Shown in pieces: positions 2,607-57,376 of a stretch of DNA of 64,000 nt. The notes beneath the pieces were generated by a model that saw only the letters and a program-made list of their open reading frames with translations, was not told the origin of the DNA and made no database searches. Each line of letters starts with the position of its first letter. The first letter of the stretch is position 1. Made by a program: the position numbers and the translations under genes. This DNA is from Acidimicrobiia bacterium (GTDB lineage Bacteria; Actinomycetota; Acidimicrobiia; Acidimicrobiales; Aldehydirespiratoraceae), in the NCBI GenBank assembly GCA_022820805.1, contig JAJEEV010000013.1, positions 16,967 to 80,966 on the forward strand, written 5' to 3'.

Positions 2607-3809
2607 ATGAGGCAGCCCCTCGCCGGGCTGCGGGTGCTGGACCTCGGCACCCGGATCGCGGCCCCGTTCTGCGCCGGGATCCTGGGAGAGCAGGGCGCCG
2701 AGGTCATCAAGGTCGAGAAGCCCGTCCACGGCGACAGGCACCGCATCAACGGGCCGTTCGCCACCGGCGACGACGGGAGCCGCTACTCCCTGACCTGGTC
2801 CGTCGAGGGGCGGGGCCGCAAGTCGGTGACCATCGACCTGCGCCGGCCCGCCGGCCAGGACCTGCTGCGGCGCCTGGCCGCGGTCTCCGACGTCGTCTGT
2901 GAGAACTTCAGGCCGGGGACCCTGGAGCGCTGGAACATCGATCCGACCCGGCTCGATCCGCGGCTGGTGACCGCCCGGATCAGCCTGTTCGGCCAGGACG
3001 GGCCCAAGTCGCTGCACACCGGCTTCGACCGCAACGCGGTCGCTTTCGGCGGGTTGATGCACCTCACCGGGGAGCCCGACCGACCGCCGGTACCGCCCGG
3101 CCTGACCGTCGCCGACTACCTCACCGGGGTGTTCGCGGCCCAGGCCGTGACCAGCCTGCTGTATGAGCGCGACGCCCGGGGCACCGGAGCCGGCGGCGTG
3201 GTCGACGCCTACCTGTACGGCTCGATCCTGCGGATCATGGAGTGGACCATCGCGGCCTACGACCGGCTGGGCGTGGTTCGTCAACGCACCGGCAACTTCT
3301 CGAAGCAAGCGGCGCCGATCGGCAGCTACCTGAGCCGCGACGGCCGGCATGTGTGCGTCGTGGCTGTGAGCCAGGCAATGTTCGAGCGCCTGTGCGAGGC
3401 GATGGGCCGGCCCGAGCTGTTGAGCGACGAGCGCTACGCAACCGCGGCGGCCCGGGCCCGCAACGACGCCGAGACGAACGCGCTGGTGGCCGAATGGGTG
3501 TCGGGACTGGACGCGGCCGAGATCGAGGAGCGCTGTCAGCGCTGCGGCGTGCCGGTGGGCACCGTCCACGACGTGGCCGACATAGCCGCGGACGAGCATG
3601 TGCGCGCCCGGGGCGATCTCTGCATCGTGGACGACCCGGTCATCGGTCCTGTGCGCCAGCAGGCCCCTTTCCCCCGCTTCTCCAGCGAACCGCTTCCCAC
3701 CCCGTCCGGTGCCCCTCGTTTGGGCGAGCACACCGACGAGGTGCTAGGGAACCTGCTGGGACTTTCAGGAGGCGAAATCGCGGCCCTGAGGGACGACAAT
3801 GTGATCTGA
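2607..3809 (+). CDS. family III CoA-transferase (CaiB/BaiF), copy 1
   Basis: LRVLDLGTRIAAPFCAGILGEQGAEVIKVE, ENFRPGTLERWN, APRLGEHTDEVL. Confidence 0.9.
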   Translation: MRQPLAGLRVLDLGTRIAAPFCAGILGEQGAEVIKVEKPVHGDRHRINGPFATGDDGSRYSLTWSVEGRGRKSVTIDLRRPAGQDLLRRLAAVSDVVCENFRPGTLERWNIDPTRLDPRLVTARISLFGQDGPKSLHTGFDRNAVAFGGLMHLTGEPDRPPVPPGLTVADYLTGVFAAQAVTSLLYERDARGTGAGGVVDAYLYGSILRIMEWTIAAYDRLGVVRQRTGNFSKQAAPIGSYLSRDGRHVCVVAVSQAMFERLCEAMGRPELLSDERYATAAARARNDAETNALVAEWVSGLDAAEIEERCQRCGVPVGTVHDVADIAADEHVRARGDLCIVDDPVIGPVRQQAPFPRFSSEPLPTPSGAPRLGEHTDEVLGNLLGLSGGEIAALRDDNVI

Positions 3810-3811
3810 GC

Positions 3812-5611
3812 ATGACCGCCGCCAACACTCCGGACAGCGAGAGCACCGGGATCCGCTACGAGCCCGACGACCCGTGCCCGCCGCTGCTGCTGCTCGGCGT
3901 CGGCCTCCAGGGCACCATGATGATCCTGGCCTCGATCGTGCTGATCGTGGCCGTCACCGCCCGAGCCGGTGGCCAGGGCGACGACTACCTGACGTGGGCG
4001 GTGTTCGCGGCCCTGATCATCTCCGGAGCCCTCATCGCGCTCCAGGCCAGCCGGGTGTGGCGACTCGGTGCCGGCCACATCCTGTTCATGGGCCCCACCA
4101 CCAATTTCGTGGCCGTCGCGGTGCTGGCGCTGGAGGCAGGCGGACCGGCCCTGCTGGCGAGCCTGACCGTGGTTTCGTCCCTCCTCTACCTAATGCTCGC
4201 CTTCTGGCTGCCCCTGCTGCGCAGGGTCATCACGCCCGTCGTCTCCGGCACGGTGCTCATGTTGATCGCGGTGTCGGTCCTACCGATCGCGCTCGACCGC
4301 GTCGCGGAGGTCTCAGGCGACGCAGACCCGGCCTTCGGGCCGATCATCGCGGCGGTGACGATGGCCGTCACCACAGTGCTGGCCCTGCGGGCGCCCCGGA
4401 GCCTGAAACCCTGGTCGCCACTGGTGGCCCTGCTCACCGGATCGGTGGTGGCAGCCGCGCTCGGAGCCTTCGACGCCCAGCCGATCACCGACGCCGCGTG
4501 GGCCGGCATCCCCTCCGGCGGGTTCCCCGGGTTCGACCTCACTCCCGGACCGGACTTCTGGGCGCTGCTCCCGGCGTTCGGGGTGGTCACCCTGGTGGGC
4601 GGCGTCAAGAACATGGGTGACAGCGTGGCCGTGCAGCAGGCCTCGCGGCGCCAGGCCAAGGTGACCGACTTCCGGCTGGTGCAGGGCGCCCTCAACACCA
4701 ACGGCCTCGGCATCCTGCTCTCGGGCCTCGTCGGAACCCCGCCCACCACCGCCTACTCGTCCCGCAGCGTGATGCTCATCACGTTCACGTCGGTGGCCGC
4801 CCGCCGGGTCGGCTACGTGATGGGAGCCATCCTGGCCGTGCTGGCGCTGTTCCCGAAGCTCGCCGCCATCCTCGTCGCGATCCCGAGCCCCGTCATGGGG
4901 GCCTACATCCTGGTGGCCATCGGCACGCTCTTCGTCGCCGGCATGCGCACCGCGGTCAGGGACGGCCTCGACGCCCAGAAGGCCACCATCGTGGCCATCT
5001 CGTTCGCGGTGGGCGCCGGTCTGGAACACCAGACGATATTCGCCGACCTGCTCGGCGGGACGTGGTCCCCGCTGCTGGACAACGGTGTGGTCATGGGCGC
5101 GGCGACCGCGGTGGTGCTGACGCTGTTCATGGAGGCCACCCGGCCGGTGCGCCAGACCCGTCTCGAGGTCGACCTCAGCGTCTCGTCGCTTCCCGAGATC
5201 GACCAGTTCCTGCTCGACATCGCCGCCCGGCTGGGCTGGAACCAGACCTCGACCAGCCGGCTGCGCTCCGCCGGCGAGGAGACCCTCATCAGCCTGATCC
5301 ACCCGCGTGGACCCGCTCCCGGTGAGGGACCGCCCCGGTTCATCGTCATAGCCCGCCCAAGCGACACCCTGGTCGAGCTGGAGTTCCTGGCCGTGTTCGA
5401 GGAGGAGAACCTGGAGGACCGCCTGGCCTACCTGAGCGAGGAGGCCGAGGGGGGCCAGGGGATCGAGGAGGGCGAGATCTCCCTGCGCCTGCTGCGCCAC
5501 TACGCGGCGTCGGTCCAGCACCAGAAGTACCAGGGCCTCGACGTGGTGACCGTCCAGGTTCGGGGAACGCGATTGCGAACGGCCTCACCATCGGAGAGTC
5601 ATAGGTACTAG
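3812..5611 (+). CDS. NCS2/SLC23-type permease fused to a soluble C-terminal regulatory-like domain, copy 1
   Basis: ATG at 3812 lies 2 nt after the CaiB stop; the upstream part of ORF 3242..5611 overlaps caiB. The product has multiple TM segments. NCS2-like blocks: GDSVAVQQASRR...LNTNGLGILLSGLVGTPPTTAYSS and IPSPVMGAYILVAIGTLF. A soluble tail of about 160 aa follows. Confidence 0.8.
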   Translation: MTAANTPDSESTGIRYEPDDPCPPLLLLGVGLQGTMMILASIVLIVAVTARAGGQGDDYLTWAVFAALIISGALIALQASRVWRLGAGHILFMGPTTNFVAVAVLALEAGGPALLASLTVVSSLLYLMLAFWLPLLRRVITPVVSGTVLMLIAVSVLPIALDRVAEVSGDADPAFGPIIAAVTMAVTTVLALRAPRSLKPWSPLVALLTGSVVAAALGAFDAQPITDAAWAGIPSGGFPGFDLTPGPDFWALLPAFGVVTLVGGVKNMGDSVAVQQASRRQAKVTDFRLVQGALNTNGLGILLSGLVGTPPTTAYSSRSVMLITFTSVAARRVGYVMGAILAVLALFPKLAAILVAIPSPVMGAYILVAIGTLFVAGMRTAVRDGLDAQKATIVAISFAVGAGLEHQTIFADLLGGTWSPLLDNGVVMGAATAVVLTLFMEATRPVRQTRLEVDLSVSSLPEIDQFLLDIAARLGWNQTSTSRLRSAGEETLISLIHPRGPAPGEGPPRFIVIARPSDTLVELEFLAVFEEENLEDRLAYLSEEAEGGQGIEEGEISLRLLRHYAASVQHQKYQGLDVVTVQVRGTRLRTASPSESHRY

Positions 5612-5655
5612 GTCCCGCCGTGTAACGTGCTCGCCGTGGACCGCGAGAGGCTGCC

Positions 5656-6855
5656 ATGAGACGCCCGCTGGAAGGACTCCGGGTGATCGACCTGGGATCC
5701 CGGGTCTCGGCCCCGTTCTGCGCCGGGATACTGGGCGAGCAGGGCGCCGAGATCATCAAGATCGAGGAACCGATCCGGGGCGACCGGCTGCGCGAGCTGG
5801 GTCCCTACGCCCACGACGACGCCGGGCAGCGGTACTCGCTGTACTGGTCGGTGGAGGGCCGGGGCCGCAAGTCGGTGACGCTCGACCTGCGCCAACCGCA
5901 GGGCCAGGAGATCCTCCGCTCCCTGGCCGGCGCCAGCGATGTGCTGTGCGAGAGCTTCCGGCCGGGCACCCTCGAACGCTGGAACATCGACCCGTCCCGC
6001 CTCTCCCCGCACCTGGTGACGGCCCGCTTCAGCGTGTTCGGCCAGGACGGCCCCAAGTCGTTGCGGCCCGGCCTCAACGGCAACGCCATGGCCTTCAGCG
6101 GGCTCATGCACCTCACCGGCTATCCCGATCGGCCTCCGGCACGGCCCGGAGTCAACGTCGCCGGCTACCTGACCGGCCTGTTCGCGGCCCAGGCCGTCAC
6201 CAGCCTGCTGTACGACCGCGACGCCCGGGGCGGAACCGGCGGGGTGATCGACGTGTACATGTACGGCTCCATCCTGCGCATCATGGAGTGGACCATCGCC
6301 GCGCACGACCGGCTGGGCATGGTCCGCGACCGCTCGGGCGCCAGCCTCGACATCGCCGCGCCGATCGGCAACTACCCCAGCCGTGACGGGCGCTACGTGT
6401 ACCTCGTCGGCGGCAGCCAGACTTTCTTCGAGCGACTGTGCCTTGCCATGGGACAGCCCGAGCTGGCCGCCGACGAGCGCTTCGCCGACGCCGCGGCCCG
6501 GGCCCGCAACCGGACCGAGATCAACGCGATCGTCGCCGAGTGGGTCGCCGGCCTGGACGCCGACGAGGCGGAGGCCCGCTGCGTGGCCTGCGACGTGCCC
6601 GCGGGCAAGATCTACGACGTCGCCGACCTGGCCGCCGACGAGCACGTGCAGGCCAGGGGTGACATCTGCACCGTCGAGGACCCGGTCGTCGGACCGGTCC
6701 GCCAGCAGGCGCCCTTCCCCCGCCTGCTCGGCGAGACCCCTCCCGCTCCTGCGGGCGCGCCCCGCCTGGGCGAGCACACCGACGAGGTCCTCTCGGGCGT
6801 GCTGGGCCTGTCGGGCACCGAGCTGGCCGCCCTCAGGTCCGACGGCGTCATCTGA
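5656..6855 (+). CDS. family III CoA-transferase (CaiB/BaiF), copy 2
   Basis: Collinear paralog of 2607..3809, roughly two-thirds identical by eye: LRVIDLGSRVSAPFCAGILGEQGAEIIKIE, APRLGEHTDEVL. Confidence 0.9.
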   Translation: MRRPLEGLRVIDLGSRVSAPFCAGILGEQGAEIIKIEEPIRGDRLRELGPYAHDDAGQRYSLYWSVEGRGRKSVTLDLRQPQGQEILRSLAGASDVLCESFRPGTLERWNIDPSRLSPHLVTARFSVFGQDGPKSLRPGLNGNAMAFSGLMHLTGYPDRPPARPGVNVAGYLTGLFAAQAVTSLLYDRDARGGTGGVIDVYMYGSILRIMEWTIAAHDRLGMVRDRSGASLDIAAPIGNYPSRDGRYVYLVGGSQTFFERLCLAMGQPELAADERFADAAARARNRTEINAIVAEWVAGLDADEAEARCVACDVPAGKIYDVADLAADEHVQARGDICTVEDPVVGPVRQQAPFPRLLGETPPAPAGAPRLGEHTDEVLSGVLGLSGTELAALRSDGVI

Positions 6856-6858
6856 CCG

Positions 6859-6933
6859 CCCGTCCCCCTCCTCCGGAATTGGCAGCAAAACGCACGCATA
6901 CCGTGCAAAACGCTGCCAATTCCGGGGGACGGC
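6859..6933. terminator. long compound hairpin between convergent genes (candidate bidirectional terminator or structured RNA)
   Basis: CCGGAATTGGCAGC (6873-6886) pairs with GCTGCCAATTCCGG (6912-6925). Inside is an inner stem GCACG/CGTGC flanked by symmetric AAAAC bulges. Outside is CCGTCCCC/GGGGACGG. There is no U-tract. Confidence 0.4.
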
Positions 6934-6938
6934 CGGGT

Positions 6939-8114
6939 TCAGGCGACGCGCTGGATGAGGGTGCCGGTCCCCAGGCCGCCGCCGCAGCACATCGACACCA
7001 GGCCGTAGTCGCCGTCGCTGCGCTCCAGCTCGTGCACCGCCTTGGTGGTGAGGATGCAGCCGGTGCCTCCCAGAGGATGGCCCAGCGCGATGGCGCCGCC
7101 GTTGGGGTTGGTGCGAGCCGGGTCGGCTCCGACCGTGCGCTGCCAGGCGATCACCACCGAAGCGAACGCCTCGTTGACCTCGAACACGTCCACGTCGTCG
7201 ATGGACAGCCCCTCGCGCGACAACACCCGCTCGGTGGCCGGTATCGGCCCCTCAAGCATCAGCACCGGATCGCATCCCACCAGCGCGGTCTGCGCCACTC
7301 GGGCCCGGGCCCTCAGTCCCAGCTCGGCCGCCCTGTCCGCCGACATCAGCAGCACCGCGGCCGCGCCGTCGGCGATCTGCGATGACGAGCCCGCGGTGTG
7401 GATGCCGTCGTCGCGGGCCACCGGCTTGAGCCCGGCGAGGGCCTCCAGGCTGGTGTCGCGGGGCACCTCGTCGCGGGCGAACTCGACCGTCTCGCCCGTC
7501 TTGCGGCCGTCCTCGTCCACAAGCACTGCGTCCAGGGGGACGATCTGGGTCTCGAAGCGACCCTCGCGCTGGGCGGTGGCCGCCCTCAGCTGCGACTCCA
7601 GCCCGAGCTCGTCGGTGTCGGCGCGCGAGATGCCGTAGGCGGTGGCGATGCGCTCCGCGCCCTCGAACTGGCTGGTGAACTCGTAGTGCTGGAAGTAGCT
7701 GCGCGACACCGGCTTGCCGGGGCCGTTCATCACGTTGGCAGCCAGAGGCACCATCGACATCGACTCCACCCCGCAGGCCAGCACGGTGTCCTCCGCGCCC
7801 GACGCGATGAGGCTGTAGGCCAGGTTCACGGCGTGCTGCGACGACCCGCACTGCGAGTCGACGGTGGAACAGGCGGTGGTCTTCTCGCCCCCGTGGGACA
7901 GCCACGCCGTGCGGGTGATGTTCATGCCCTGGGCGCCGACCTGGTCGATGCAGCCGCCCACCACCTGGTCGACGTCGCCGCTGGCGATCCCGGCCCGGTT
8001 GAGGCATTCCATCTGCACTGGGCCGAGGATGTCGGCGGGATGGGTGTGGGCCAGGGTTCCGTTGCGCTTGCCTACTGCTGAGCGCACTGCCTCCACGATT
8101 ACTACGTCTCTCAA
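6939..8114 (-). CDS. acetyl-CoA C-acyltransferase (thiolase)
   Basis: DSQCGSSQHAV, GHPLGGTGC and MCCGGGLG motifs. TTG start at 8114 is preceded by AAGGAGGA. Confidence 0.9.
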   Translation of the reverse strand: MRDVVIVEAVRSAVGKRNGTLAHTHPADILGPVQMECLNRAGIASGDVDQVVGGCIDQVGAQGMNITRTAWLSHGGEKTTACSTVDSQCGSSQHAVNLAYSLIASGAEDTVLACGVESMSMVPLAANVMNGPGKPVSRSYFQHYEFTSQFEGAERIATAYGISRADTDELGLESQLRAATAQREGRFETQIVPLDAVLVDEDGRKTGETVEFARDEVPRDTSLEALAGLKPVARDDGIHTAGSSSQIADGAAAVLLMSADRAAELGLRARARVAQTALVGCDPVLMLEGPIPATERVLSREGLSIDDVDVFEVNEAFASVVIAWQRTVGADPARTNPNGGAIALGHPLGGTGCILTTKAVHELERSDGDYGLVSMCCGGGLGTGTLIQRVA

Positions 8115-8130
8115 TTCCGTCCTCCTTGTC

Positions 8131-8320
8131 GCGCGAGGAGCCTACGCGCTCTTGTTGAGCGTGGTTCTTTCCGGCCGGCGGGTCCTGTCGCCGAGCCAGA
8201 CGACCGACACGGGCTTCGCCCCAGGCCCTCACGGCCGGCGGGTCCTGTCGACGAGCCGAGATGACCGACACGGGCTTCGCCCTATTCGTCGGTCATCTGA
8301 CTCGCCGCCACCCGCCGGCC
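8131..8320. repeat. intergenic repeat element, family A (tandem 60-nt unit x2 plus tail)
   Basis: CGGCCGGCGGGTCCTGTCG-CGAGCC-GACCGACACGGGCTTCGCCC occurs at about 8172-8222 and 8232-8283. The tail is CTATTCGTCGGTC...CACCCGCCGGCC. Ends are inverted: GGCCGGCGGGT / ACCCGCCGGCC. Confidence 0.6.
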
Positions 8321-8345
8321 TTTCGGGTCGCGCCCTTCGAGCGGG

Positions 8346-9317
8346 TTAGGGGGCGGCTGCTATTACTGTCCAGTCGAGGATCTTTTCGGGGTCTTTGGGG
8401 CGGTGGGCGAAGGCCTCTACTTGGACCGCGAAGACCCGGCCTGTTGCGGCTGGGGCGGTGTCTCGGAGGGTGTGGCGGAAGGAGACTTGGTCTCCTTCGA
8501 AGGCGGGGGCGGTGTGGTCGCACGAGTGCCAACCGACGACGGTGGCCATTCCGGGCAGGACTCTTGACAAGGATGCTCCGGCCAGGCCGACGATGTGGCC
8601 GCCGTACAGCAGGCGCTGGGGGTAGGAGGACTCGGCCGCGTCGCGGTGGATGAGGGCCAGGTTGTTGGTGAGACGCACTAGCGCCAGTGCGTTGTCGACG
8701 ACGTCGCGGGTTGGGTCGGTGATGGTGTCGCCCGGCTCCCAGGCGGTTCCGGGACCTAGGGGGCCGAAGTCCCAGCTCTCGGGGACCAGCGCCGCGTAGG
8801 AGGGGAGATCCAGTGGGGCGGCCGTTCCTAGGCTGTCGGAGTGGCCGGGCTGATCGCTGGTTGCCTGGGGGAGGAGGGGGGCCCGCTGGTAGGTGATGGC
8901 CGGTTCGCCGTCGGCGGTGGTGACGATGTCGACGAGCACCTTGCCGCGGTGGGGCCGGCCCGGCCGGGGACGGCTGTCGGCGAGGGCGGTGACGGTGACG
9001 GTGGTGGCAAGGCGTTGCCCGATGAGCACGGGCTTGAGCAGCCTCAGGTCGCGGTAGAAGAGGTTGGCGATCGCCCGGCGGGTCAGGGTGGTGCTGTGCC
9101 CGATGGACAGGTGCAGCGCCAGCGCGGGGCTGGCCAGACGGCCGGGGCGGCCGGTGACGGCCGCGCACACCTCGGGGTCCATCACCATCGGCAGCCGCTC
9201 GCCCATCATCGACTGGTAGAGCGCGGCCATTCCCTCGTCGACCACCACCGACGGCTGGCGGGGCAGCACCTGGCCGACGCTTAGATCCTCGTAGTAGGGG
9301 CCGTCGAGCGGGATCAC
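8346..9317 (-). CDS. double hot-dog MaoC-like acyl dehydratase / enoyl-CoA hydratase
   Basis: 323 aa with two hot-dog-like halves; the C-terminal half has YGGHIVGLAG...GDQVSF. GTG start. Confidence 0.7.
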   Translation of the reverse strand: MIPLDGPYYEDLSVGQVLPRQPSVVVDEGMAALYQSMMGERLPMVMDPEVCAAVTGRPGRLASPALALHLSIGHSTTLTRRAIANLFYRDLRLLKPVLIGQRLATTVTVTALADSRPRPGRPHRGKVLVDIVTTADGEPAITYQRAPLLPQATSDQPGHSDSLGTAAPLDLPSYAALVPESWDFGPLGPGTAWEPGDTITDPTRDVVDNALALVRLTNNLALIHRDAAESSYPQRLLYGGHIVGLAGASLSRVLPGMATVVGWHSCDHTAPAFEGDQVSFRHTLRDTAPAATGRVFAVQVEAFAHRPKDPEKILDWTVIAAAP

Positions 9318-9344
9318 GGCACGCAGGCTACGACCCGCCGGAGG

Positions 9345-10280
9345 TCATAGCCGCTTCGAGAGAATGGCCGCGCCGTCGGCAGTGACGTGGACCACATCGC
9401 GGCGGTCGCCGTCGGAGACGCTGAGGACCATGCCGGCCTCAAGCTGCTCGCCGAGACCGATCTGGGGGCCGATGACGGGTTGCTCGAAACCCATGCCGAG
9501 GCCCCGAACCAGCCAGTCGGGGGAGGTCGCGGCGGTGGATAGGTCGTTATGGGATGCGTCGGCACGGCAGGCCTGGGTCAGGGCGGCGGAACCGGCGCGG
9601 CGGCTGTCGACGAACAGGCCGCCCACTCCCCCCTCGTACAGGTCGCGGATGACCCCCACGTCCACGGCAAGCCCGCCGTCGCGGCGCTCAGCCTGCACAC
9701 CTGACGACGGGACGGTGACGCCCCCGGCGGCCAGTGCCGCGATGGCGGCTGCGGCCGGGTCGGCGCCGTCTCGGGCCGCGACCGCGGCGTCCACGCCGGC
9801 GGCGGCTGCGGCGCAGGCGCCGGCGATGGCCTCGATCTCGGCTGGGAGTTTGTGGCGGCGGACGCCGGCCATCAGGTTGTCGGCCGCCACGACCTCGGCC
9901 CGGGGGGCGAAATGGGATGCGGCTCGCTGGAACGACGGTGTCAGCTCGTCCACACCGATCAGGCGAGATTCGGCGAGACCGTCGATGGCGGCCATGGACT
10001 CGGCCATGATCCGCGGATTCCAGGTGAGCGGGTAGAGGTCGTCGAAGCTCATCGGGGGCTCGATGCCGTCGTCCCAGCTCGACAGGGCGTGGACCCGCCC
10101 GGTGGCTCCCACCACGATGCAGCCCGCGCCGAAGGGCCGGGTGCCCGCGGTCCACAGCCGCCGCATCCCGCAGGCGTAGCCGGTGTTGTCCTGGCGCCCC
10201 AGCACCAGCACGTCGAGGCCGGCCGCAGCCATGGCACCCAGCACCCGGTCCCGACGGGCCAGCACGAGATCGTCGCTCAT
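9345..10280 (-). CDS. M24 (creatinase/prolidase) fold protein, degenerate metal site
   Basis: Start is the internal ATG at 10280 (MSDDLVLARRDRVLGAMAAAGLDVLVL), overlapping the upstream stop as ATGA. The pita-bread domain is recognisable but H and E ligands appear substituted (VRGLGMGFEQP, MVLSVSDG). Confidence 0.7.
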   Translation of the reverse strand: MSDDLVLARRDRVLGAMAAAGLDVLVLGRQDNTGYACGMRRLWTAGTRPFGAGCIVVGATGRVHALSSWDDGIEPPMSFDDLYPLTWNPRIMAESMAAIDGLAESRLIGVDELTPSFQRAASHFAPRAEVVAADNLMAGVRRHKLPAEIEAIAGACAAAAAGVDAAVAARDGADPAAAAIAALAAGGVTVPSSGVQAERRDGGLAVDVGVIRDLYEGGVGGLFVDSRRAGSAALTQACRADASHNDLSTAATSPDWLVRGLGMGFEQPVIGPQIGLGEQLEAGMVLSVSDGDRRDVVHVTADGAAILSKRL

Positions 10281-11470
10281 GTGCGGAACGGCTCGTAGTG
10301 GTGGCCCCCGCCGAGGGCGCGCCAGCCATCTCCGGTGACGGCCACGATCTCCTCGGCCCGGTAGCCGCCCACGCCGTCGGACCAGACGACCGGCTCGAAC
10401 ACCAGCACCATGCCCTCCTCCAGCGGGTAGCCGTCGTCGAAGCCCGGGCCCAGGTCGGTGCCGATCATGGGCATCTCCGCGCTCTCGAGGCCGGTTCCGT
10501 GGGCCAGGTAGAACTGCGGCAGCCACGGGGTCTCCTCCGGCTCGACCGCCCGGGCCGCCCGGCCGACGTCGCCGAGGGTGGCTCCGGGCCGTACCGCCGC
10601 CAGCGACGCGTGCAGCACCGCCATCCAACGCTCGAACAGCGACCGCTCGGCCGGGGTCGGATCCCGTCCCACCACCCAGGTGCGGCCGAAGTCGGACATG
10701 TAGCCGTGCCAGCCCACCCCGGCGTCCACCCACACCAGGTCGCCGGCCGCGAAGACGGGATCGTCGACCCCGGTGGGGAAGGCCACATGACCGGTGGACG
10801 TGCGGGGACCGCCGTCGCGGCGCGCCGGCATCGGCTGGAAGATCGGGTCGATCACGTTGCGATGGTCCGAACCCGGATCCGGGTCGCCGTGGCGCAGGGC
10901 CGCCAGGAATGCGCCGGCCACCTCGGACCGGGTGGCACCGGGAACGCAGGCCGCCTGGGCCGCGACCATCGCACGCTCGGTGTGCCGCTGGGACCGGTCG
11001 ATGCAGTCCAGCTCGTCGGCGGTCTTCACCACCCGGGCCGGACCCAGCACCCGGCCGGCGTCGACCAGCTCGGCGCGGTCGAGCACCCCGGCGCGGGCCA
11101 TGGCGCCGGTGATCCCGTCCACCGCGATCCTGCGGCCGGCCACATCCCCCAGCACCTCGGCGACGGCCGCCCCGACTGCGGCCGCGCCGTCATCGAGCTC
11201 GGGCCACAGCGGATCTCCCAACTCGGCGACACTCGACGCGGCCGCGTCGACCGAGTCGTGGGCATGCAACCCGACCGGCCCGTCCGGGCCCACAACGGCG
11301 ACCGCGCGCCGGTGATTGGCGTGGCTGGCGTCGACCGCGGCACCGACGTGGCCGGAGGCGTAGGCGACGTGGGGATCGTGGAGCAGGACCGCGCCGTCCA
11401 CGTCCTGAGCCCGCATCTGGTCGCGCAGGCGGGCCAGCCGCTGTGCCCCCATCCGCCGCAGGTCGACCAC
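10277..11470 (-). CDS. M24 family metallohydrolase (Xaa-Pro peptidase / creatinase / ectoine-hydrolase-like)
   Basis: All five ligand positions are plausible: VWVDAG, SDFGRT, AHGTGLE, LVFEP, YRAEEIV. Confidence 0.85.
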   Translation of the reverse strand: MVDLRRMGAQRLARLRDQMRAQDVDGAVLLHDPHVAYASGHVGAAVDASHANHRRAVAVVGPDGPVGLHAHDSVDAAASSVAELGDPLWPELDDGAAAVGAAVAEVLGDVAGRRIAVDGITGAMARAGVLDRAELVDAGRVLGPARVVKTADELDCIDRSQRHTERAMVAAQAACVPGATRSEVAGAFLAALRHGDPDPGSDHRNVIDPIFQPMPARRDGGPRTSTGHVAFPTGVDDPVFAAGDLVWVDAGVGWHGYMSDFGRTWVVGRDPTPAERSLFERWMAVLHASLAAVRPGATLGDVGRAARAVEPEETPWLPQFYLAHGTGLESAEMPMIGTDLGPGFDDGYPLEEGMVLVFEPVVWSDGVGGYRAEEIVAVTGDGWRALGGGHHYEPFRT

Positions 11471-11523
11471 AGCCGGACGCTACCGAATCCGCGCCCGCGT
11501 CGTCCCGCCTGTCCGCTCGGTCT

Positions 11524-12450
11524 CTAGGAAACGATGAGGGTGTCCTCGCCCATCACGTCGACGCCGGACCGCTGCTCGAAGCCCGGGTGGTTGTCAGCCA
11601 GCTCCGAGGCGGGATCGCCGGCGATCCGGGTGTGCCACATCCTCCGGGGCTCGGTCATGTCGAACGGCGTCCCCCGGTGCATCAGCCGGCGGTTGTCCCA
11701 TAGCGCGGCGTCGCCGACGGTCCAGTGATGGTGATGGATGCGGGGCGGCCGGCAGGCCTCGTCGTTGAGCCCGTCGAGGAACGCCTCCGACTCGTCGTCG
11801 TCCATTCCCACGATCCCGTAGGCATGGCGACCGATGAGCAGGTTGGGCCGGCCCGTCTCGGGATGCACCTTCACCAGCGGCCGCAGCGACGGCTCGAGGT
11901 CGTGGAAGCCGTACATGTCGTAGCCCCCGCCGGAGTTCTTGGTGGGCATGTACCCCGAACGGCCCTGGCTGTAGTAGAGCGAGTGGTAGGCCTGCAGGCC
12001 TCCAAGACGCTTCCGGGTCGCGGAGTCGAGGGCCTCGTAGGCGGCCCGCATGTCGGCCCATCCGGTGGCCCCGCCGCGGCTGGGCACGACCTCGGCGGTG
12101 AACACCGAGCCCTTGGCCTGCAACGGCATGTAGGTGCTGTCGTGATGCCAGCCCTCGTTGCCCCGCAGCGACTTCACCACGTCGTGTCCGGGGTCGTCGA
12201 GAATCCTGCCCTCGGAGTCGACGTTGCTGAAGGCCACCGCCTCGAACTCGAGCGGCCCGAACCGCCGGGCGAAGGCGTTCTGCTCGGCGATGCTCAGGAA
12301 CTGGCCCGGAAAGATCAGCAGGGCGTACTCGAGCCACGTCTCGTGCAGCGCCTCGAAGGCCGGCTCGTCGATGGACCGCAACTCCACCCCGGTGACCACC
12401 GCGCCGAAAGTGGCGTCCAGCGGTTCGATCTCGAACAGGTCGGTAGCCAT
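11524..12450 (-). CDS. TauD/TfdA family Fe(II)/2-oxoglutarate dioxygenase
   Basis: Internal ATG at 12450 (MATDLFEIEPLDATFGAVVTGV); WHHDSTY facial-triad block; ALWDNRRLMHRG. Confidence 0.85.
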   Translation of the reverse strand: MATDLFEIEPLDATFGAVVTGVELRSIDEPAFEALHETWLEYALLIFPGQFLSIAEQNAFARRFGPLEFEAVAFSNVDSEGRILDDPGHDVVKSLRGNEGWHHDSTYMPLQAKGSVFTAEVVPSRGGATGWADMRAAYEALDSATRKRLGGLQAYHSLYYSQGRSGYMPTKNSGGGYDMYGFHDLEPSLRPLVKVHPETGRPNLLIGRHAYGIVGMDDDESEAFLDGLNDEACRPPRIHHHHWTVGDAALWDNRRLMHRGTPFDMTEPRRMWHTRIAGDPASELADNHPGFEQRSGVDVMGEDTLIVS

Positions 12451-12528
12451 GGTTCGGGTGTTCCCTCTTCGCCTCAGGTCGCCGGTCGAGAGGCCATCGA
12501 ATTCTATGAGCGCGTAGAGTGGGCGTTC

Positions 12529-13680
12529 ATGCGGACCGGGGTGTTCCTGTTCGGCGGCGTGGAGTTGGCCGACGCCGGGGCCGGGCCGCCGGTCCCCACC
12601 GACCGGCGCTTCGACCACAAGGAGATCTGGCGGGCCACCGAGCGGATCATCGACATGGCGGTCGCCTGCGACCAGCTGGGCTACGACTCGTACTGGCTGA
12701 CCGAGCACCACTTCCAGCACGAGGGCTACGAGGTGATCCCCAACGGGATCCTGGTCGGAACCATCGTCGCCGAGCGCACCGAGAACATCCGCATCGGCAT
12801 GGCCTTCAACATCGTGCCCCAGTGGCATCCCCTGCGGCTGGCCGAGGACTTCGCCACCTTCCACAACATCTCCGGCGGCCGGGGAATCCTCGGCGTCGGC
12901 CGGGGCACGGTGCCGCGCGAGGCCGAGACGCTGGGCACCAAGATCGGCAGCTTCGACAACCCCGACAAGGCCGCCGCCGACGAACTCAACCGTAAGCAGT
13001 TCGACGAGGCCATGGAAGTGATACAGCTGGCGCTGGACAACGAGTCGTTCAGCTTCCACGGCGACGTCTACGACTTCCCGCCCGCGGGCATCCCCGACCG
13101 GGGCGGGTTCGTCACCGAGCTGTCGCTGGTGCCCCGACCCCTCTACCCCTACGAGATCTGGCAGGCCGCCAAGTCGCCGGCCACCCTCGAGCAGATCCCA
13201 CGCTGCGGCTGGGGCGGCGTGTTCTGGAACTACCACCACTCCTTCATCAAGGAGCGCTGGGAGCAGTTCGCCGAGAGGTACGCGGCCCACCACGGCCGCG
13301 AGCTGGCCCGGGGCGAGAACCGCCTGCTCGTGCAGTGCCTCCGGGTGGAGGATACCTACGAGGAGGCGGTCGTATCGGTGCGCGACGGCCACGACGAGCT
13401 CTGGAAGTTCCTCGGCCCCTACGGCTGGAGCAAGGGCTACATGGGCCCCGACGGGAAGCCGGCCAAGCCGGGGCTGATCCCCACCCTGGAGACGTCCATC
13501 GAGCAGAGGACGTGGCTGGTGGGCAGCCCCGAGCAGGTGGCCGAGGCCATCGAGTGGCGGGACTCAGAGATCGGGCTGGAGAACTTGCTGCTGTTCCCGG
13601 CCATGCCTGGCGACCCCTATGAGAAGGTCGAGGAACAGTTGCACCGCATCGCCGAGGAGGTTCTCCCGCTCCTGTCTTAG
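12529..13680 (+). CDS. LLM-class flavin-dependent oxidoreductase
   Basis: MRTGVFLFGG...GYDSYWLTEHHFQHEGYEV...RIGMAFNIVPQWHPLRLAEDF. Divergent from the tauD-like gene. Confidence 0.85.
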   Translation: MRTGVFLFGGVELADAGAGPPVPTDRRFDHKEIWRATERIIDMAVACDQLGYDSYWLTEHHFQHEGYEVIPNGILVGTIVAERTENIRIGMAFNIVPQWHPLRLAEDFATFHNISGGRGILGVGRGTVPREAETLGTKIGSFDNPDKAAADELNRKQFDEAMEVIQLALDNESFSFHGDVYDFPPAGIPDRGGFVTELSLVPRPLYPYEIWQAAKSPATLEQIPRCGWGGVFWNYHHSFIKERWEQFAERYAAHHGRELARGENRLLVQCLRVEDTYEEAVVSVRDGHDELWKFLGPYGWSKGYMGPDGKPAKPGLIPTLETSIEQRTWLVGSPEQVAEAIEWRDSEIGLENLLLFPAMPGDPYEKVEEQLHRIAEEVLPLLS

Positions 13681-18353: not shown

Positions 18354-20024
18354 ATGAGCCTGCAGGTCAAGGACAAGCTTCAGGGACTGAGGGGTGACGT
18401 CTTCGGCGGGATGACCGCGGCAGTGGTGGCCCTGCCTCTGTCGCTCGCCTTCGGAGTCGCCTCGGGACTCGGCGCGATCGAGGGCCTGTACGGCGCCATC
18501 GTCGTGGGCATGCTGGCCGCGCTGCTCGGCGGCAGCAAGACCCAGATCTCGGGCCCCACCGCCCCGCTGTCGGTGGCCATGTCGGTGGTCGTCGTCGACT
18601 ACGCCGACGGCGACATCACCAAGGCTCTGGCCATCGTCGCCCTGGCCGGTCTGATCCAGGTGCTCATGGGCGCCCTGCGCCTGGGAACCTACGTGGCCTA
18701 CACGCCCTACTCGGTGGTGTCGGGCTTCACCTCGGCGGTGGGCGTGATCATCATCGTGGTCCAGGTCCTGCCCCTGCTCGGCACCGAGGTAGCTCTGGGC
18801 GGGGCGCTCACGTCGCTGCGCGCATGGCCCGATGCCGTCGACAACATCGACCCCAGCGCGCTGGTGCTGGGACTTGCGACGCTGGCGGTCTGCATCTTCT
18901 GGCCGAACCGGCTCAAGAAGGTCCTCCCGCCGTCGGTCGCCGCGCTGATCATCGGGAGCCTGCTCGGCGTGCTCTGGCTCAAGGACGCGCCGATCATCGG
19001 CGAGGTGCCCACCGGCCTGCCCGATGTGCAGATGCCGGAGATCCCCCTCAGCGACCTTGCCGGCGCCATGCCGGCGGCGATCACGCTCGCCCTGCTCGGC
19101 TCCATCAACAGCCTGCTCACCGCCATGGTGGCCGACTCGCTGACCCGCCAGACCCACAACCCCAACCGGGAGTTGATGGGCGTCGGCGCGGCCAATGTCG
19201 TCGTGTCCCTCATCGGCGGGGTGCCCGGAGCCGGCGCCACCTCCTGCACCGTGGCCAACGCACGGGCCGGCGGCCGCTCGAGAGTCTCCGGCGTGCTGTG
19301 CGCCAGCATCCTGCTGGCGCTGGTGCTGGGGCTGGGTCGCTACGTCGACTCCATCCCCCATGCGGTGCTGGCCGCGATCCTCATCAAGATCGGCTTCGAC
19401 ATCATCGACTGGCGCTACCTCGCCTGCATTCACAAGATCCAGTGGGACAACCTGGTGGTGCTGATGCTGACGTTGGGGCTGGCAGTGGTGTCCGACCTCG
19501 TCGTGGCGGTGGCGGTGGGCCTGATCGCGGCCGCGATGACCAGCGCCCGCCAGATAGAGAGCCTGGAGCTCCAGACCGTGGTCTCGACCCCTCTGCTCGA
19601 CATGACATTCCTGGCCGACGACGAAGACGATGACGACGACCCCCTCAGCGGTCTCAGCCTGGACCTGGACGACGACGCCGACCCGTTCGCAGCCCGGTGC
19701 GGGCTGCTGTCGCTGCGGGGCAGCTTCACGGTGGCCTCCTCCATCAAGCTGTTCGGAACGATGAGCACCGACATCGCCGAGCACGAGGTGGTGATCATCG
19801 ACTTCTCCGAGACCGTCCACATAGACGACAGCGCCGCCCTGGTGGTCGGTCAGCTGATCGACGCGGCTCTGGCAGAGAACACCCAGGTCATCATCAAGAG
19901 CCTGTCGGGGGCGAACGCAGAGACGCTGAAAGTCCTGGGCTCGCTCCGCAACATCCCCGAAGACCAGTTCGTGGACGAACTCGACGAGGCCCGGGGCATC
20001 GCCCGCCGCCTGCTGGACGCCTAG
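18354..20024 (+). CDS. SulP family anion transporter with C-terminal STAS domain
   Basis: GDVFGGMTAAVVALPLSLAFGVASG...SKTQISGPTA. C-terminal STAS-like region (VVIIDFSETVHIDDSAALVV). An acidic insert lies between the TM and STAS parts. Confidence 0.9.
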   Translation: MSLQVKDKLQGLRGDVFGGMTAAVVALPLSLAFGVASGLGAIEGLYGAIVVGMLAALLGGSKTQISGPTAPLSVAMSVVVVDYADGDITKALAIVALAGLIQVLMGALRLGTYVAYTPYSVVSGFTSAVGVIIIVVQVLPLLGTEVALGGALTSLRAWPDAVDNIDPSALVLGLATLAVCIFWPNRLKKVLPPSVAALIIGSLLGVLWLKDAPIIGEVPTGLPDVQMPEIPLSDLAGAMPAAITLALLGSINSLLTAMVADSLTRQTHNPNRELMGVGAANVVVSLIGGVPGAGATSCTVANARAGGRSRVSGVLCASILLALVLGLGRYVDSIPHAVLAAILIKIGFDIIDWRYLACIHKIQWDNLVVLMLTLGLAVVSDLVVAVAVGLIAAAMTSARQIESLELQTVVSTPLLDMTFLADDEDDDDDPLSGLSLDLDDDADPFAARCGLLSLRGSFTVASSIKLFGTMSTDIAEHEVVIIDFSETVHIDDSAALVVGQLIDAALAENTQVIIKSLSGANAETLKVLGSLRNIPEDQFVDELDEARGIARRLLDA

Positions 20025-49274: not shown

Positions 49275-50372
49275 TTGATCCTCAATCCCGGCCAGGGCCG
49301 CATCGAGAGCGATCACTACCTTCCGGTAACACCAGAGACCAGCCGCTGGGGCTGGTGGCCGAACCGGGAATCCACGCCGGTGATGTCGGTGGACAGCGGG
49401 ACGGCCGTCACCGTGGACACGCTGTCGCATGAGGGGATCCTCGAGGACCAGGGCCGCGACCCGGCGGCCTTCTTCGGCGTCCGCGGCATCGAGCGGTCCG
49501 GGGTCCTCCACGACGCCGTCGAGATGGCCCGGGATGTGCCCCACACGTTCGGAGTCGACGGCCCCCACGTGGTGACCGGCCCGATCGAGGTCCGGGGCGC
49601 CAGGGCCGGCGACCTGCTCCAGGTGGACGTGCTGGGCTTCGATCTGAGGGTCCCCTACGGCGTCACCTCGAACCGGCACGGGCTCGGGGCGCTGCCCGGC
49701 GAGATGCCCGACGGGTCCGAGCCTCCCGGCACGCTCACCGCCGGCACGCCGCACGGCACGGTGTCGGTGTTCACCGAGGTGGAGGGCCGCGCCGCCGCAG
49801 GCACGGCCGTGCTGCGCTACGGCGCCGGCAGCGCGCTGCGCTACCCGATCGCGCCGTTCCTCGGGATGATGGGTGTGTCCCCCGGCACCGACGATCCCGT
49901 GCCGACCAGGCCGCCGGGCCGCCACGGCGGCAACCTCGACATCAAACACCTGGTACAGGGATCCACGCTCTACCTTCCGGTCCAGGTGGCGGGCGCGGGC
50001 TTCGCGGTGGGCGACCCTCACTTCGCCCAGGGCAACGGCGAGGTGGCCCTCACCGCGCTGGAGGGCTCGCTGCGGGCGGACCTGCGGCTGTCGGTGCTGC
50101 AAGGTCCCGACGCCCGCCGGGCGTGCGGGCTGATCGAGAATCCCCTGGGCGAGACCGACGACCACTGGGTGCTGGTCGGTCTGCACGCCGACCTGGACGA
50201 GGCCATGCGGGAGGCGGTGCGGGAGGCCCTGCGCTTCTGCGAGAGCCGGCTCGGGCTGCCTCGCCACATCGCCTACACCTACCTGAGCTGCGCCGCCGAC
50301 TTCGAGGTGTCCCAGGTGGTGAACGACGTCAAGGGCGTCCACTGCCTCGTAGCCAAGCGGGACTTCAGGTAG
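49275..50372 (+). CDS. acetamidase/formamidase (FmdA/AmdA) family protein
   Basis: HYLPVTPETSRWGWW...VDSGTAVTVDT...VTGPIEVRGARAGDLLQVDV. Start is uncertain: TTG 49275 or GTG 49182. Confidence 0.75.
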   Translation: MILNPGQGRIESDHYLPVTPETSRWGWWPNRESTPVMSVDSGTAVTVDTLSHEGILEDQGRDPAAFFGVRGIERSGVLHDAVEMARDVPHTFGVDGPHVVTGPIEVRGARAGDLLQVDVLGFDLRVPYGVTSNRHGLGALPGEMPDGSEPPGTLTAGTPHGTVSVFTEVEGRAAAGTAVLRYGAGSALRYPIAPFLGMMGVSPGTDDPVPTRPPGRHGGNLDIKHLVQGSTLYLPVQVAGAGFAVGDPHFAQGNGEVALTALEGSLRADLRLSVLQGPDARRACGLIENPLGETDDHWVLVGLHADLDEAMREAVREALRFCESRLGLPRHIAYTYLSCAADFEVSQVVNDVKGVHCLVAKRDFR

Positions 50373-51585
50373 CGGCGTCCACCTCAGGGGCGTCGGGGGC
50401 GTCGGGACCCGAGGCGGGCACAGTGCCCCGGATGCGCAGCCAGCCGGCCAGCACCAGGGCCAGCACCGTCAGGCCGACGGCGGGCCAGGTCACGCCGACT
50501 CCGAACCTGTCGTAGAGCAGAGCGGCGGGGAGCGCGGCGATGGCGGCTCCGGCCACCTCGGCCGCGCCCATCAGGCCCAGCGCGGCCGCCTGGCGCCGCT
50601 CGGGGACGGCCCGGGCCACCACCGCGTGGGCCGCGGTGAAGCCGTAGCCGTCGGCGAAGCCCACCAACACCATCGCAACCACGATCGGGATCACGCCCGG
50701 GATCACGCCGTAGAACATCGTCAAGACGCTCACCACCACGAGCCCGGCCATCGTCACCCGCACCGGTCCTACCCGGTCGGCCAGCCGGCCGGCCCGCGTC
50801 CCCACCAGAATGATCGGGACGGCGACCATCGTGAAGGCGATCCCGGTGGCCACCGCGCCGGCGCCCCGGTCGGCGAACATCACCGGCAGCACCGCCTCCC
50901 AGGCACCGATCATCATGAAGTAGCCGCCGACCATGATCAGCGCGCCCTGAAGGCGCCGCATCGACAGCAGGTCGAACGACGTGGCCCGCCGGGAGGCGTC
51001 GAGCAGGCCCCGGTCGGGGGGCAGGCGCATCGCCACCGGAACGAACAGCAGCATGGCCCCGGCGAAGACTGCGAACGGCGTCCGGATCCCCCCGGCCCAC
51101 ACCAGCAGGGCGGTCAGCACCGGCCCGAAGATGAATCCCGTGGTCTCGGCCACGACCATCCGTCCGAGGTTCTCGCCGGCCCGGGCCGGATCATGGACCG
51201 AGGCGGCCCGGCGCACCCCCGGGAGAATGAGCCCTCCCGCGAATCCGAGAACGGCCCGGCTCAGCACCCAGACGGCCAGACCCTCGGCGAAGACCATCAT
51301 CAGCATGGCCGCCGCGCTGAGACCGATCCCCGCGGTGGCCATCATGCGGGCATGGCCCATGTCGGCCAGCCGGGCCAGCGTGACCTGCGACACGAACGCG
51401 GCCACGAAGCCGCTGGCCACCATGACTCCGATGCCGGTGCCGCTGAAACCGAACTCGTCGCGCAGCTCGCCGAGCACCGTGACGATCCCGCCAATGCCGC
51501 CGGCGGTCACCCCCATCAGCACCTGGAACGGCAGCAGGTCGCCACCGAAGCGCCGGCGCGGCGCGGCGCCGGGCCGACGGATCAT
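50365..51585 (-). CDS. MFS transporter
   Basis: 406 aa, about 12 predicted TM segments, LARLADMGHAR loop motif. Confidence 0.85.
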   Translation of the reverse strand: MIRRPGAAPRRRFGGDLLPFQVLMGVTAGGIGGIVTVLGELRDEFGFSGTGIGVMVASGFVAAFVSQVTLARLADMGHARMMATAGIGLSAAAMLMMVFAEGLAVWVLSRAVLGFAGGLILPGVRRAASVHDPARAGENLGRMVVAETTGFIFGPVLTALLVWAGGIRTPFAVFAGAMLLFVPVAMRLPPDRGLLDASRRATSFDLLSMRRLQGALIMVGGYFMMIGAWEAVLPVMFADRGAGAVATGIAFTMVAVPIILVGTRAGRLADRVGPVRVTMAGLVVVSVLTMFYGVIPGVIPIVVAMVLVGFADGYGFTAAHAVVARAVPERRQAAALGLMGAAEVAGAAIAALPAALLYDRFGVGVTWPAVGLTVLALVLAGWLRIRGTVPASGPDAPDAPEVDAAT

Positions 51586-57260: not shown

Positions 57261-57376
57261 CGGGTCCAACTGGAGAAGGGGACTCTGGGGTCGCCTTCAG
57301 GGCCTGGTCGCGACGGCGACGTGATGGAATGCCATGCTTGGCTCGTGCTAGGCAACGACGCGATGGCGTGGGGGAG

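Follow-up and report, generated by a model that had tools for sequence, protein, structure and literature searches.

The gene at positions 3812..5611 of a 64,000-nt stretch of contig JAJEEV010000013.1 from an Acidimicrobiia bacterium (assembly GCA_022820805.1; this whole stretch, with a G+C content of 70%, is hereafter called the window) encodes a secondary carrier of the NCS2/SLC23 fold, built of two sets of seven transmembrane (TM) helices, that continues behind its last helix into a soluble domain. Models and sequence profiles place this tail in the GHKL superfamily, within its HATPase_c_2 branch, to which the anti-sigma-factor kinases RsbW, SpoIIAB and UsfX belong, and we know of no description of such a domain on a transporter. 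The fusion is real and old. By its sequence the tail is a pseudokinase, in which other residues stand family-wide in place of the Mg-binding Asn and of the DxGxG and GxGL boxes, and by analogy with other carriers it most likely works as a non-catalytic, built-in regulatory and dimerisation module, a reading to which we give a somewhat better than even chance.

Architecture of the fusion protein

The open reading frame (ORF) is translated into a product of 599 aa and closes with the stop codon 5609..5611. The first-pass annotation of the window, made from the sequence alone, had described an NCS2-type permease that continues past its last TM helix into a soluble tail, and the residues it quoted are indeed the translation of this ORF; the start of the flagged stretch was misplaced by one nucleotide, being given as 5130 whereas the in-frame codon begins at 5129. 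The Pfam family Xan_ur_permease (PF00860) covers residues 30-404 (E 5.8e-41, 140.9 bits against a gathering cut-off of 27), and about 155 residues remain between the end of the permease and the stop. The length of ~160 aa proposed for the tail is thus close to what follows the permease, whereas the conserved domain itself is shorter, with ~140 aa (residues ~447-586), and the terminal ~13 residues (TRLRTASPSESHRY) are missing in most of the aligned homologs. The tail domain is acidic (isoelectric point 4.7). In the full-length AlphaFold2 (AF2) model (predicted local distance difference test, pLDDT, 77.5; predicted template modelling score, pTM, 0.72) confidence is high in the membrane part and lower in the tail. 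The closest relative was found in a metagenome-assembled genome (MAG) of Candidatus Aldehydirespirator sp. (Acidimicrobiia), with 96% identity in the tail.

Fold and remote homology of the tail

When the tail alone was modelled by AF2 from a 65-sequence alignment, an ordered domain was predicted (mean pLDDT 83.2, pTM 0.77) with the elements in the order β1-α1-α2-β2-β3-α3-(disordered acidic loop)-α4-β4-β5, namely β1 at residues 449-454, α1 at 457-474, α2 at 478-495, β2 at 509-516, β3 at 520-528, α3 at 534-544, α4 at 555-562, β4 at 567-573 and β5 at 576-584. The 21 best Foldseek matches of this model in the PDB were all anti-sigma-factor Ser kinases (E 1.4e-8 to 1e-3), headed by UsfX of M. tuberculosis (8ih8/8jzt; E 1.4e-8, 18-20% identity) and including RsbW of B. 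subtilis (6m36/6m37), SpoIIAB of Geobacillus (1th8/1l0o/1til/1tid/1thn) and the RsbW domain of Rv1364c (3ke6); the target-normalised template modelling score (TMt) was 0.67-0.86 for the single-domain proteins among them, and the catalytic ATP-binding (CA) domains of histidine kinases entered the list below them, at E>4e-3. The predicted fold is therefore a Bergerat-type α/β sandwich with the element order of the anti-sigma kinases. The order that the first-pass annotation had read from the letters comes close to it, the difference being that the model has two pairs of strands where single strands had been proposed.

At the sequence level, 60 diverse tails with mutual identity below 62% were each scanned singly against Pfam; 12 of them matched HATPase_c_2 (PF13581), the best at 2.3e-6, and every other family was matched by at most two. 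PF13581 was also found in 5 of 65 closer tails, all these matches in relatives being weak or sub-threshold with respect to the gathering score of 27.4 bits. The tail of the 3812..5611 product itself has no significant Pfam match, PF13581 being absent even at E<=10, and an NCBIfam scan of the product returned nothing in the tail. An hhalign comparison of the diverse tail alignment with UsfX orthologs, SpoIIAB and RsbW gave E 5.7e-4 at a probability of 30%, in the register that the fold predicts; with shallow profiles the probability fell below 1%, and those alignments served for the register alone. A protein search with UsfX found nothing but mycobacterial orthologs of 77-99% identity and added little profile depth. 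The relationship must be remote, because a plain search of the tail profile against PDB sequences gave only noise (histone H3, FFAR4). The degenerate RsbW/SpoIIAB-type module suspected in the first-pass annotation is thus borne out by an ordered model, its structural neighbours and the HATPase_c_2 matches of relatives; the tail carries no annotated domain and is kept in the full-length relatives examined.

Replacement of the ATP-binding boxes

Column frequencies were taken from 315 near-complete tail domains, and the reference sequences of SpoIIAB, RsbW and UsfX were verified against the PDB. The N, G1 and G2 boxes had been suspected to be substituted, and they are so both in the 3812..5611 product and across the 315 domains. 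The N-box Glu is retained (E490 in 100% and E489 in 99%), and the position of the Mg-binding Asn is occupied by S494 (S74/T12/C3/A3% in the family, Asn not being among these four commonest residues); for comparison, the N-box helix of SpoIIAB reads E-I-K-T-V-V-S-E-A-V-T-N-A-I-I. The G1 zone at residues 527-537 (A-V-F-E-E-E-N-L-E-D-R), whose register is approximate, has neither DxGxG nor any Gly in this product; Gly reaches at most ~9% at any of its positions in the family, and N533 (99%), D536 (94%) and R537 (87%) are conserved. The loop found where the ATP lid would be has a pLDDT below 50, at tail residues 109-116 in the tail model and at 531-560 in the full-length model. In the G2 box the GxGL glycines are replaced by E555 and S557, so that E555-I-S557-L aligns with G-M-G-F of SpoIIAB; the family form is E-I-S-L/F, with the two Gly positions E85/D10% and S96%, and the helix further conserves R559 (94%), L561 (99%) and H563 (94%). 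Altogether W476, R483, E489, E490, E524, F525, N533, D536, S557, R559, L561, H563, H570 and D577 are conserved at 94-100%, and R537 and R562 at 87-88%. UsfX is altered in the same three boxes, with Arg for the N-box Asn, E-A-S-A-A for G1 and G-S-F-S-W for G2.

That the tail might nevertheless be a working kinase or ATPase with non-canonical ATP-binding residues could be argued from the invariant N-box Glu and the nearby, almost invariant N533. We consider it very improbable, since the four residues at the Asn position (96% of the 315 members), the lack of glycines in G1 and G2, the acidic variable loop in the lid region and the lack of any Pfam match in the tail of the window protein all argue against it.

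The carrier domain

In a Foldseek search the full-length model matched UapA best (5i6c; 3.8e-16, TMt 0.79), along with UraA (TMt 0.85) and SVCT1, followed by SLC26 and SLC4 carriers, and phmmer matched the carrier to UapA at 1.6e-14; the membrane part thus has the 14-TM, 7+7 inverted-repeat fold of UraA and UapA. A Pfam scan of the product found neither PF00916 nor PF01740, and the NCBIfam cut-offs were missed, with 167.7 against 291.8 for TIGR00801 (ncs2) and 194.8 against 414.15 for TIGR03173 (pbuX), both of these matches being in the N-terminal region. The canonical NAT motifs are Gln-His in transmembrane segment (TMS) 1, E-x-x-G-D in TMS8 and Q/E/P-N-x-G in TMS10 (PMC5972032). The first is replaced by Q33-G34, both invariant in 114 homologs; K266-N-M-G-D270, with K266 at least 90% conserved, stands opposite E356-C-I-G-D360 of UapA, and S316-S317-R318-S319 opposite Q408-N-N-G411. 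Because all three motifs are altered, the protein is not a canonical nucleobase NCS2 carrier, and the earlier assignment of the first ~440 aa to an NCS2/SLC23 permease holds for the fold (residues 1-443) and for PF00860 and not in the narrower sense. Divergent prokaryotic NAT branches of unknown function have been noted before (PMC5972032). The Lys at the position of the substrate-binding Glu of TMS8, together with the gene contexts described below, suggests that the substrate is plausibly not a nucleobase and possibly an anion, such as a carboxylate.

Distribution and copies of the fusion

At least 120 homologs were retrieved with the complete protein as query; almost all measure 552-621 aa, with 92-98% query coverage and 62-96% identity. 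The prevalence of the fusion was surveyed with a tail-only profile searched against 1.84 billion representative proteins, which gave 707 clusters (50% identity) at a cut-off of E<=1e-3, of which 471 also passed E<=1e-10; among the best 150 matches the domain was C-terminal in every one of 540-650 aa, ending ~10 residues or less from the end, and the shorter matches were partial. At least 598 loci in species-representative genomes carry the conserved peptide pattern, and the 79 best were kept for locus analysis (individual loci are designated L001 and so on). The permease and the tail immediately after it share one reading frame in 77 of these 79, the exceptions being one frameshift and one contig edge, and in 74 of 76 tail matches of a metagenome sample representing a divergent clade; 125 matches of that clade were confirmed among 241 million metagenome records, all from a handful of projects.

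An artefact, in which the tail would come from an annotation or assembly error or from a neighbouring gene fused by a frameshift, might be suspected from the tail-only search where it gave just short proteins of 90-277 aa, and from some long-read assemblies in which permease and tail are called as overlapping ORFs. However, the split calls are frameshifts inside the permease, as in L001, where the tail frame runs upstream into TM14, and the in-frame counts, the full-length homologs and the presence of two copies in the window leave this explanation with hardly any credit. The 125 short proteins (90-277 aa) were also considered as candidates for a stand-alone tail gene, and both cases examined turned out to be frameshifted or fragmented gene calls. 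In long contigs of the ENA the fusion gene is often split by frameshifts into overlapping ORFs (L001:2704-4435; L002/L003:3336-4819; L048), and such split genes have given rise to many spurious 'small proteins' in the protein database.

The 79 genome loci are in MAGs of Acidimicrobiia (Ca. Aldehydirespirator, Ca. Poriferisocius), Dehalococcoidia/Chloroflexota, Latescibacterota, Gemmatimonadota, Acidobacteriota, Alphaproteobacteria and Opitutales. The family thus spreads over at least seven phyla, apparently almost all of its hosts being sponge or coral symbionts; the isolate and project codes SB06xx, COS, RHO, Plut, jk18, p16, MKWU01, LXNI01 and LXNJ01 are ones that we take to stand for sponge and coral microbiome studies. 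The family Aldehydirespiratoraceae (formerly UBA11606) includes a sponge-symbiotic lineage (PMC11706023). Several copies per genome are common, often in tandem. Head-to-tail duplicates of the whole gene, each with its own tail, were seen in L009, L012, L015, L016, L018, L019, L020, L041 and L079, and several genomes have further copies elsewhere, e.g. three family members on one contig of 6.44 Mb. The second copy in the window, 598 aa long, is 63% identical to the first over 571 aa including the tail.

Partner-switching genes near the fusion

In the 79 genome loci, 150 small ORFs no further than 2.5 kb from the fusion were scanned with Pfam, and the 25 families listed for them include no STAS, sigma or anti-sigma family. 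The corresponding scan of the metagenome sample covered 79 loci, and 4 of 103 small neighbouring ORFs encode canonical HATPase_c_2 kinases in which all three boxes (N, G1 and G2) are preserved, and one encodes a STAS protein. Behind the fusion of L108 (4675..6435) come an RsbW-type kinase in convergent orientation (6438..6863), a STAS protein (7249..7596) and a REC-PP2C phosphatase (7668..8846), the set ending with a HAMP histidine kinase gene (region 4675-12318). L140, from the same lineage, has a 1.3-kb deletion that removes TM1-13 and leaves an ORF of TM14 plus tail beside the same kinase (5761-6990), and in L090 and L101 a canonical kinase is found 3 kb from the fusion. Altogether, STAS/RsbW genes lie near the fusion in just two lineages among ~158 loci, which by a rough estimate of about one locus per 79 is close to chance adjacency. 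These results come from Pfam scans of neighbouring ORFs, which were used instead of phmmer and hidden Markov model searches from SpoIIAA, RsbV, RsbS and RsfB sequences, as these searches were insensitive, the hidden Markov model missing even the STAS domain of the SulP carrier in the window.

This SulP-STAS carrier at 18354..20024, pointed out in the first-pass annotation, is real in both of its Pfam domains, yet has no conserved linkage to the fusion. It was considered as a partner and rejected: it lies 13 kb away among unrelated genes, and SulP occurs near the fusion in one other locus alone (L068). Its neighbours are a class I/II aminotransferase gene and an AAA_26 P-loop gene.

Function of the tail and alternative explanations

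We regard the structural finding on the fusion as solid, and from it we infer a function for the tail. As a built-in module, the tail would phosphorylate nothing and would play, on the cytoplasmic side, the part that STAS has behind TM14 of SLC26/SulP carriers. Because both parent families, the NCS2 carriers and the RsbW-type proteins, are homodimeric and TM14 is part of the gate/dimerisation domain, the tails should pair up beneath the membrane when the carrier dimerises, where they could gate transport through protein-protein contacts with the cytoplasmic face of the carrier and possibly also through a ligand in the remodelled tail pocket. That the module acts in cis is suggested by its start ~5 residues past TM14, by its travelling with the carrier in horizontal transfer and paralog expansion, usually without a partner gene, and by its retention whatever the neighbouring pathway; as the same fusion occurs in sup-type, CoA-transferase and DUF1330 contexts (see below), the module would serve the carrier regardless of the pathway. 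Several observations weigh against this proposal. The tail is less confident in the full-length model (pLDDT 36-82), its mediation of dimerisation is drawn by analogy with SpoIIAB/RsbW and SLC26-STAS, the strong conservation of charged residues could be explained just as well by an external partner or ligand, and the idea of an anionic substrate leans on one Glu-to-Lys change and on gene context. Moreover, a canonical RsbW-type kinase stands beside the fusion in two lineages, in L108 with STAS and REC-PP2C genes as well, and on the sponge fosmid pPS11G3 a SupE-like permease is listed between two 'anti-anti-sigma' ORFs (PMC3908369).

The last two points would fit a tail that serves as a membrane-tethered docking site for a free STAS protein or a sigma factor, in which case the phosphorylation state of the STAS protein might switch transport, or the carrier might report substrate flux by holding or releasing its partner, on the model of UsfX, which docks RsfA/RsfB and SigF without kinase activity. 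The closest structures were crystallised with such partners (UsfX-RsfB 8ih8, UsfX-SigF 8jzt, RsbW-RsbV, SpoIIAB-SpoIIAA), UsfX shares the substitutions in all three boxes, and kinase, STAS and phosphatase genes follow within 1.3 kb in L108, with its relative L140 and the more distant kinases of L090 and L101 in addition. We nevertheless hold this explanation to be unlikely, since the adjacency is confined to two independent lineages and no STAS or sigma family recurs near the fusion, since a partner would have had to travel along with a gene that moved among at least seven phyla and is present in several copies per genome, and since SupE or ORF17 of the fosmid may belong to SulP rather than to the fusion family. 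The more definite version, in which the carrier is a direct partner-switching node, i.e. a kinase-dead membrane RsbW that binds an unphosphorylated STAS protein, the STAS tail of SulP or a sigma factor, seems to us if anything slightly harder to accept. If it were true, a Ser-phosphorylation cascade would switch the transport of a sponge-derived or sup-related carboxylate or receive a report of it; the system would mirror SLC26-STAS, and each member of the SpoIIAA/SpoIIAB pair would have been recruited as a C-terminal domain of 7+7 carriers. A more doubtful alternative is a ligand sensor, the nucleotide pocket having been rebuilt for a small ligand, for example CoA, acyl-CoA or a further adenine-containing metabolite, another nucleotide or a metal ion, that exerts allosteric feedback on uptake or export. 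Near-invariant polar residues in or next to the boxes (E489/E490; N533/E535/D536/R537; S557/R559/R562/H563), as well as H570 and D577, are conserved well beyond what maintenance of the fold needs, and acyl-CoA/acyl-ACP gene contexts (CoA-transferases, thiolase, MaoC, polyketide synthase with phosphopantetheinyl transferase) would suit such a sensor; on the other hand, these residues would have to line one pocket, no known ligand-site signature is found in the sequence, and the residues could form a protein interface instead. A built-in regulatory module thus remains the most likely function of the tail.

Gene neighbourhoods

The features of the window are listed in Table 1. Contexts were counted over 80 loci, in which neighbouring ORFs were clustered and then scanned with Pfam. 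Sup-type genes, i.e. a monomodular polyketide synthase (PKS) of KS-AT-DH-MT-ER-KR-ACP type, an α/β hydrolase and/or a phosphopantetheinyl transferase (PPTase), are near the fusion in 43 of them, a 94-aa DUF1330 gene in 16, and CoA_transf_3 genes within 6 kb in 10, with none of the three in 15. The DUF1330 gene (consensus MAGYVI...GGRYLVRGG...VEGV) lies directly downstream of the fusion in most of its 16 loci (L031, L039 (6478-6762), L045, L046, L051, L052, L055, L057, L059, L061, L062, L070, L074, L075, L076 and L079), of which just L074 has sup genes too, and it is also found at L001:2379-2666. GPP34 was matched by two neighbouring ORFs of the genome loci, and PIN-domain genes recur (4 ORFs). 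In Actinobacteriota, GPP34 has been associated with sponge symbiosis (PMC11706023).

The 3812..5611 copy belongs to the CoA-transferase context and not to a sup cluster. Around it (2607..13392) an acyl-CoA or organic-acid-like pathway seems to be encoded, with two family III CoA-transferases on the plus strand and then genes on the minus strand. The paralog at 57329..59125, on the other hand, heads a sup-type cluster, being followed by a hydrolase, of which a homologous gene of ~302 aa is found in 28 loci, and then by a PKS, which is missing from the ORF list because its frame runs off the window. The PKS is 62% identical over 1309 aligned positions to that of L018, which has the domains KS-AT-DH-MT and then ER before it is ended by the locus edge; a related PKS in L036 provides the KR-ACP end. 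Several long ORFs between 54472 and 57219, upstream of this paralog, have no Pfam match.

The published sup cluster of Fieseler et al. 2007 reportedly matches the hydrolase/PPTase/monomodular PKS context of the fusion. Owing to its abundance, the sup PKS is what PCR screens of sponge metagenomes nearly always recover, and a 'permease SupE' has been named in this cluster, for which the same paper says merely 'permease' and mentions no C-terminal domain (PMC3908369). Synteny suggests that SupE may belong to the fusion family.

Table 1. Coordinates of the fusion gene, its parts and other features in the window
Feature	Coordinates	Strand	Evidence
Fusion gene: non-canonical NCS2/NAT-fold carrier with predicted RsbW/UsfX-like pseudokinase tail	3812..5611	+	Translation; PF00860; full-length homologs; AF2
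Transmembrane carrier domain, residues 1-443 (last helix TM14, 425-443)	3812..5140	+	Foldseek; phmmer
Arg-rich linker from TM14 to β1, residues 444-448	5141..5155	+	AF2 secondary structure; R447 97% conserved
Ordered tail domain (predicted), residues 449-584	5156..5563	+	AF2 models; Foldseek; HATPase_c_2 matches in relatives
N-box-equivalent helix R-L-R-S-A-G-E-E-T-L-I-S-L-I	5243..5296	+	hhalign registers against SpoIIAB/RsbW and UsfX
G1-box zone F-E-E-E-N-L-E-D-R	5396..5422	+	Position relative to β3/α3 in AF2; register approximate
Variable acidic loop of low model confidence (SEEAEGGQGIEEGEI) in the ATP-lid position	5435..5479	+	pLDDT; sequence
G2-box-equivalent helix E-I-S-L-R-L-L-R-H-Y-A	5474..5506	+	hhalign registers; column frequencies
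Non-conserved C-terminal extension	5564..5608	+	Homolog alignment; pLDDT<50 at residues 589-599
Second fusion paralog	57329..59125	+	BLASTP; Pfam PF00860
Family III CoA-transferase, upstream neighbour	2607..3809	+	Pfam CoA_transf_3, E 7e-105; stop 2 nt before fusion ATG
Second family III CoA-transferase, downstream neighbour	5656..6855	+	Pfam CoA_transf_3, E 1e-100
Thiolase, near first fusion copy	6939..8114	-	
MaoC-like hydratase, near first fusion copy	8346..9317	-	
Creatinase_N-containing protein, near first fusion copy	9345..10733	-	
622-aa protein, C-terminal half TauD-family dioxygenase, near first fusion copy	11524..13392	-	
SulP-STAS carrier	18354..20024		Sulfate_transp E 2.4e-80, STAS E 3.1e-7
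MFS transporter, upstream of second fusion copy	50365..51585	-	
Rieske ring-hydroxylating oxygenase alpha subunit, upstream of second fusion copy	52555..53877	-	
α/β hydrolase after second paralog, sup-cluster type	59145..60074	+	Pfam Abhydrolase_6
5' part of monomodular type I PKS (sup type), continuing beyond window end	60115..64000	+	Frame open from 59965, at least 1295 aa

Comparison with known systems and significance

Among known proteins, the tail is most like UsfX (RsbW, Rv3287c), with which it has in common the α/β sandwich, the substitution of all three boxes (Asn to Arg in UsfX, to Ser in the tail), the lack of DxGxG and a Ser at the second G2 glycine. UsfX, however, is a free cytoplasmic protein of 145 aa with the partners SigF, RsfA and RsfB and scores above the HATPase_c_2 Pfam threshold, whereas the tail is covalently attached behind TM14, stays below the Pfam thresholds, has invariant residues of its own and usually has no partner gene nearby. 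With SpoIIAB/RsbW of Bacillus the tail shares the fold, the element order and the N-box Glu (E490); these kinases keep N50, D81-x-G-x-G and G-x-G-F/L and phosphorylate SpoIIAA/RsbV, where the tail has S494 and E-I-S-L and lacks the G1 glycines.

On the carrier side, the fusion protein has PF00860 and the 14-TM fold in common with the canonical NCS2/NAT proteins UapA, UraA, XanQ and SVCT1; the UapA and UraA matches end at its carrier domain, and we know of no folded C-terminal domain in these four proteins or in the SLC23/NCS2 branch generally. The absence of a described NCS2 equivalent, remarked upon in the first-pass annotation, agrees with the full-text literature on NCS2, PF00860 or SLC23 in combination with anti-sigma, HATPase_c_2 or STAS, which yielded no such fusion. 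The SLC26/SulP-STAS proteins belong to the same 7+7 TM superfamily and likewise have, after TM14, a cytoplasmic domain from the bacterial partner-switching toolkit; theirs is a STAS domain from the antagonist side, whereas the tail of the fusion would come from the anti-sigma side with its GHKL fold, on a carrier closer to SLC23 than to SLC26. Large cytoplasmic control domains are familiar from SLC4 and SLC26 carriers, and a carrier with an appended cytoplasmic control domain is a known design; what seems to be new is a domain of the anti-sigma-kinase type. SupE is alike in its sup-type context, shared with 43 of the 80 loci and the second paralog, and the 3812..5611 copy differs in lying between CoA-transferases.

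With its 707 clusters at 50% identity, the domain family that the tail represents is large, and the copies of Pfam and NCBIfam used here contain no model of it. Its hosts appear to be almost exclusively symbionts of sponges and corals, from many phyla, and about half of its members are in a sup PKS cluster, which dominates sponge metagenomic PKS screens (PMC3908369). As this family shows, part of the SLC23 branch has acquired a folded cytoplasmic domain, drawn from the signalling toolkit that also supplied the STAS domain of SLC26. The fusion offers a natural system for studying the gating of elevator-type carriers by cytoplasmic domains, and for asking whether anti-sigma-like pseudokinases can have regulatory targets besides sigma factors.

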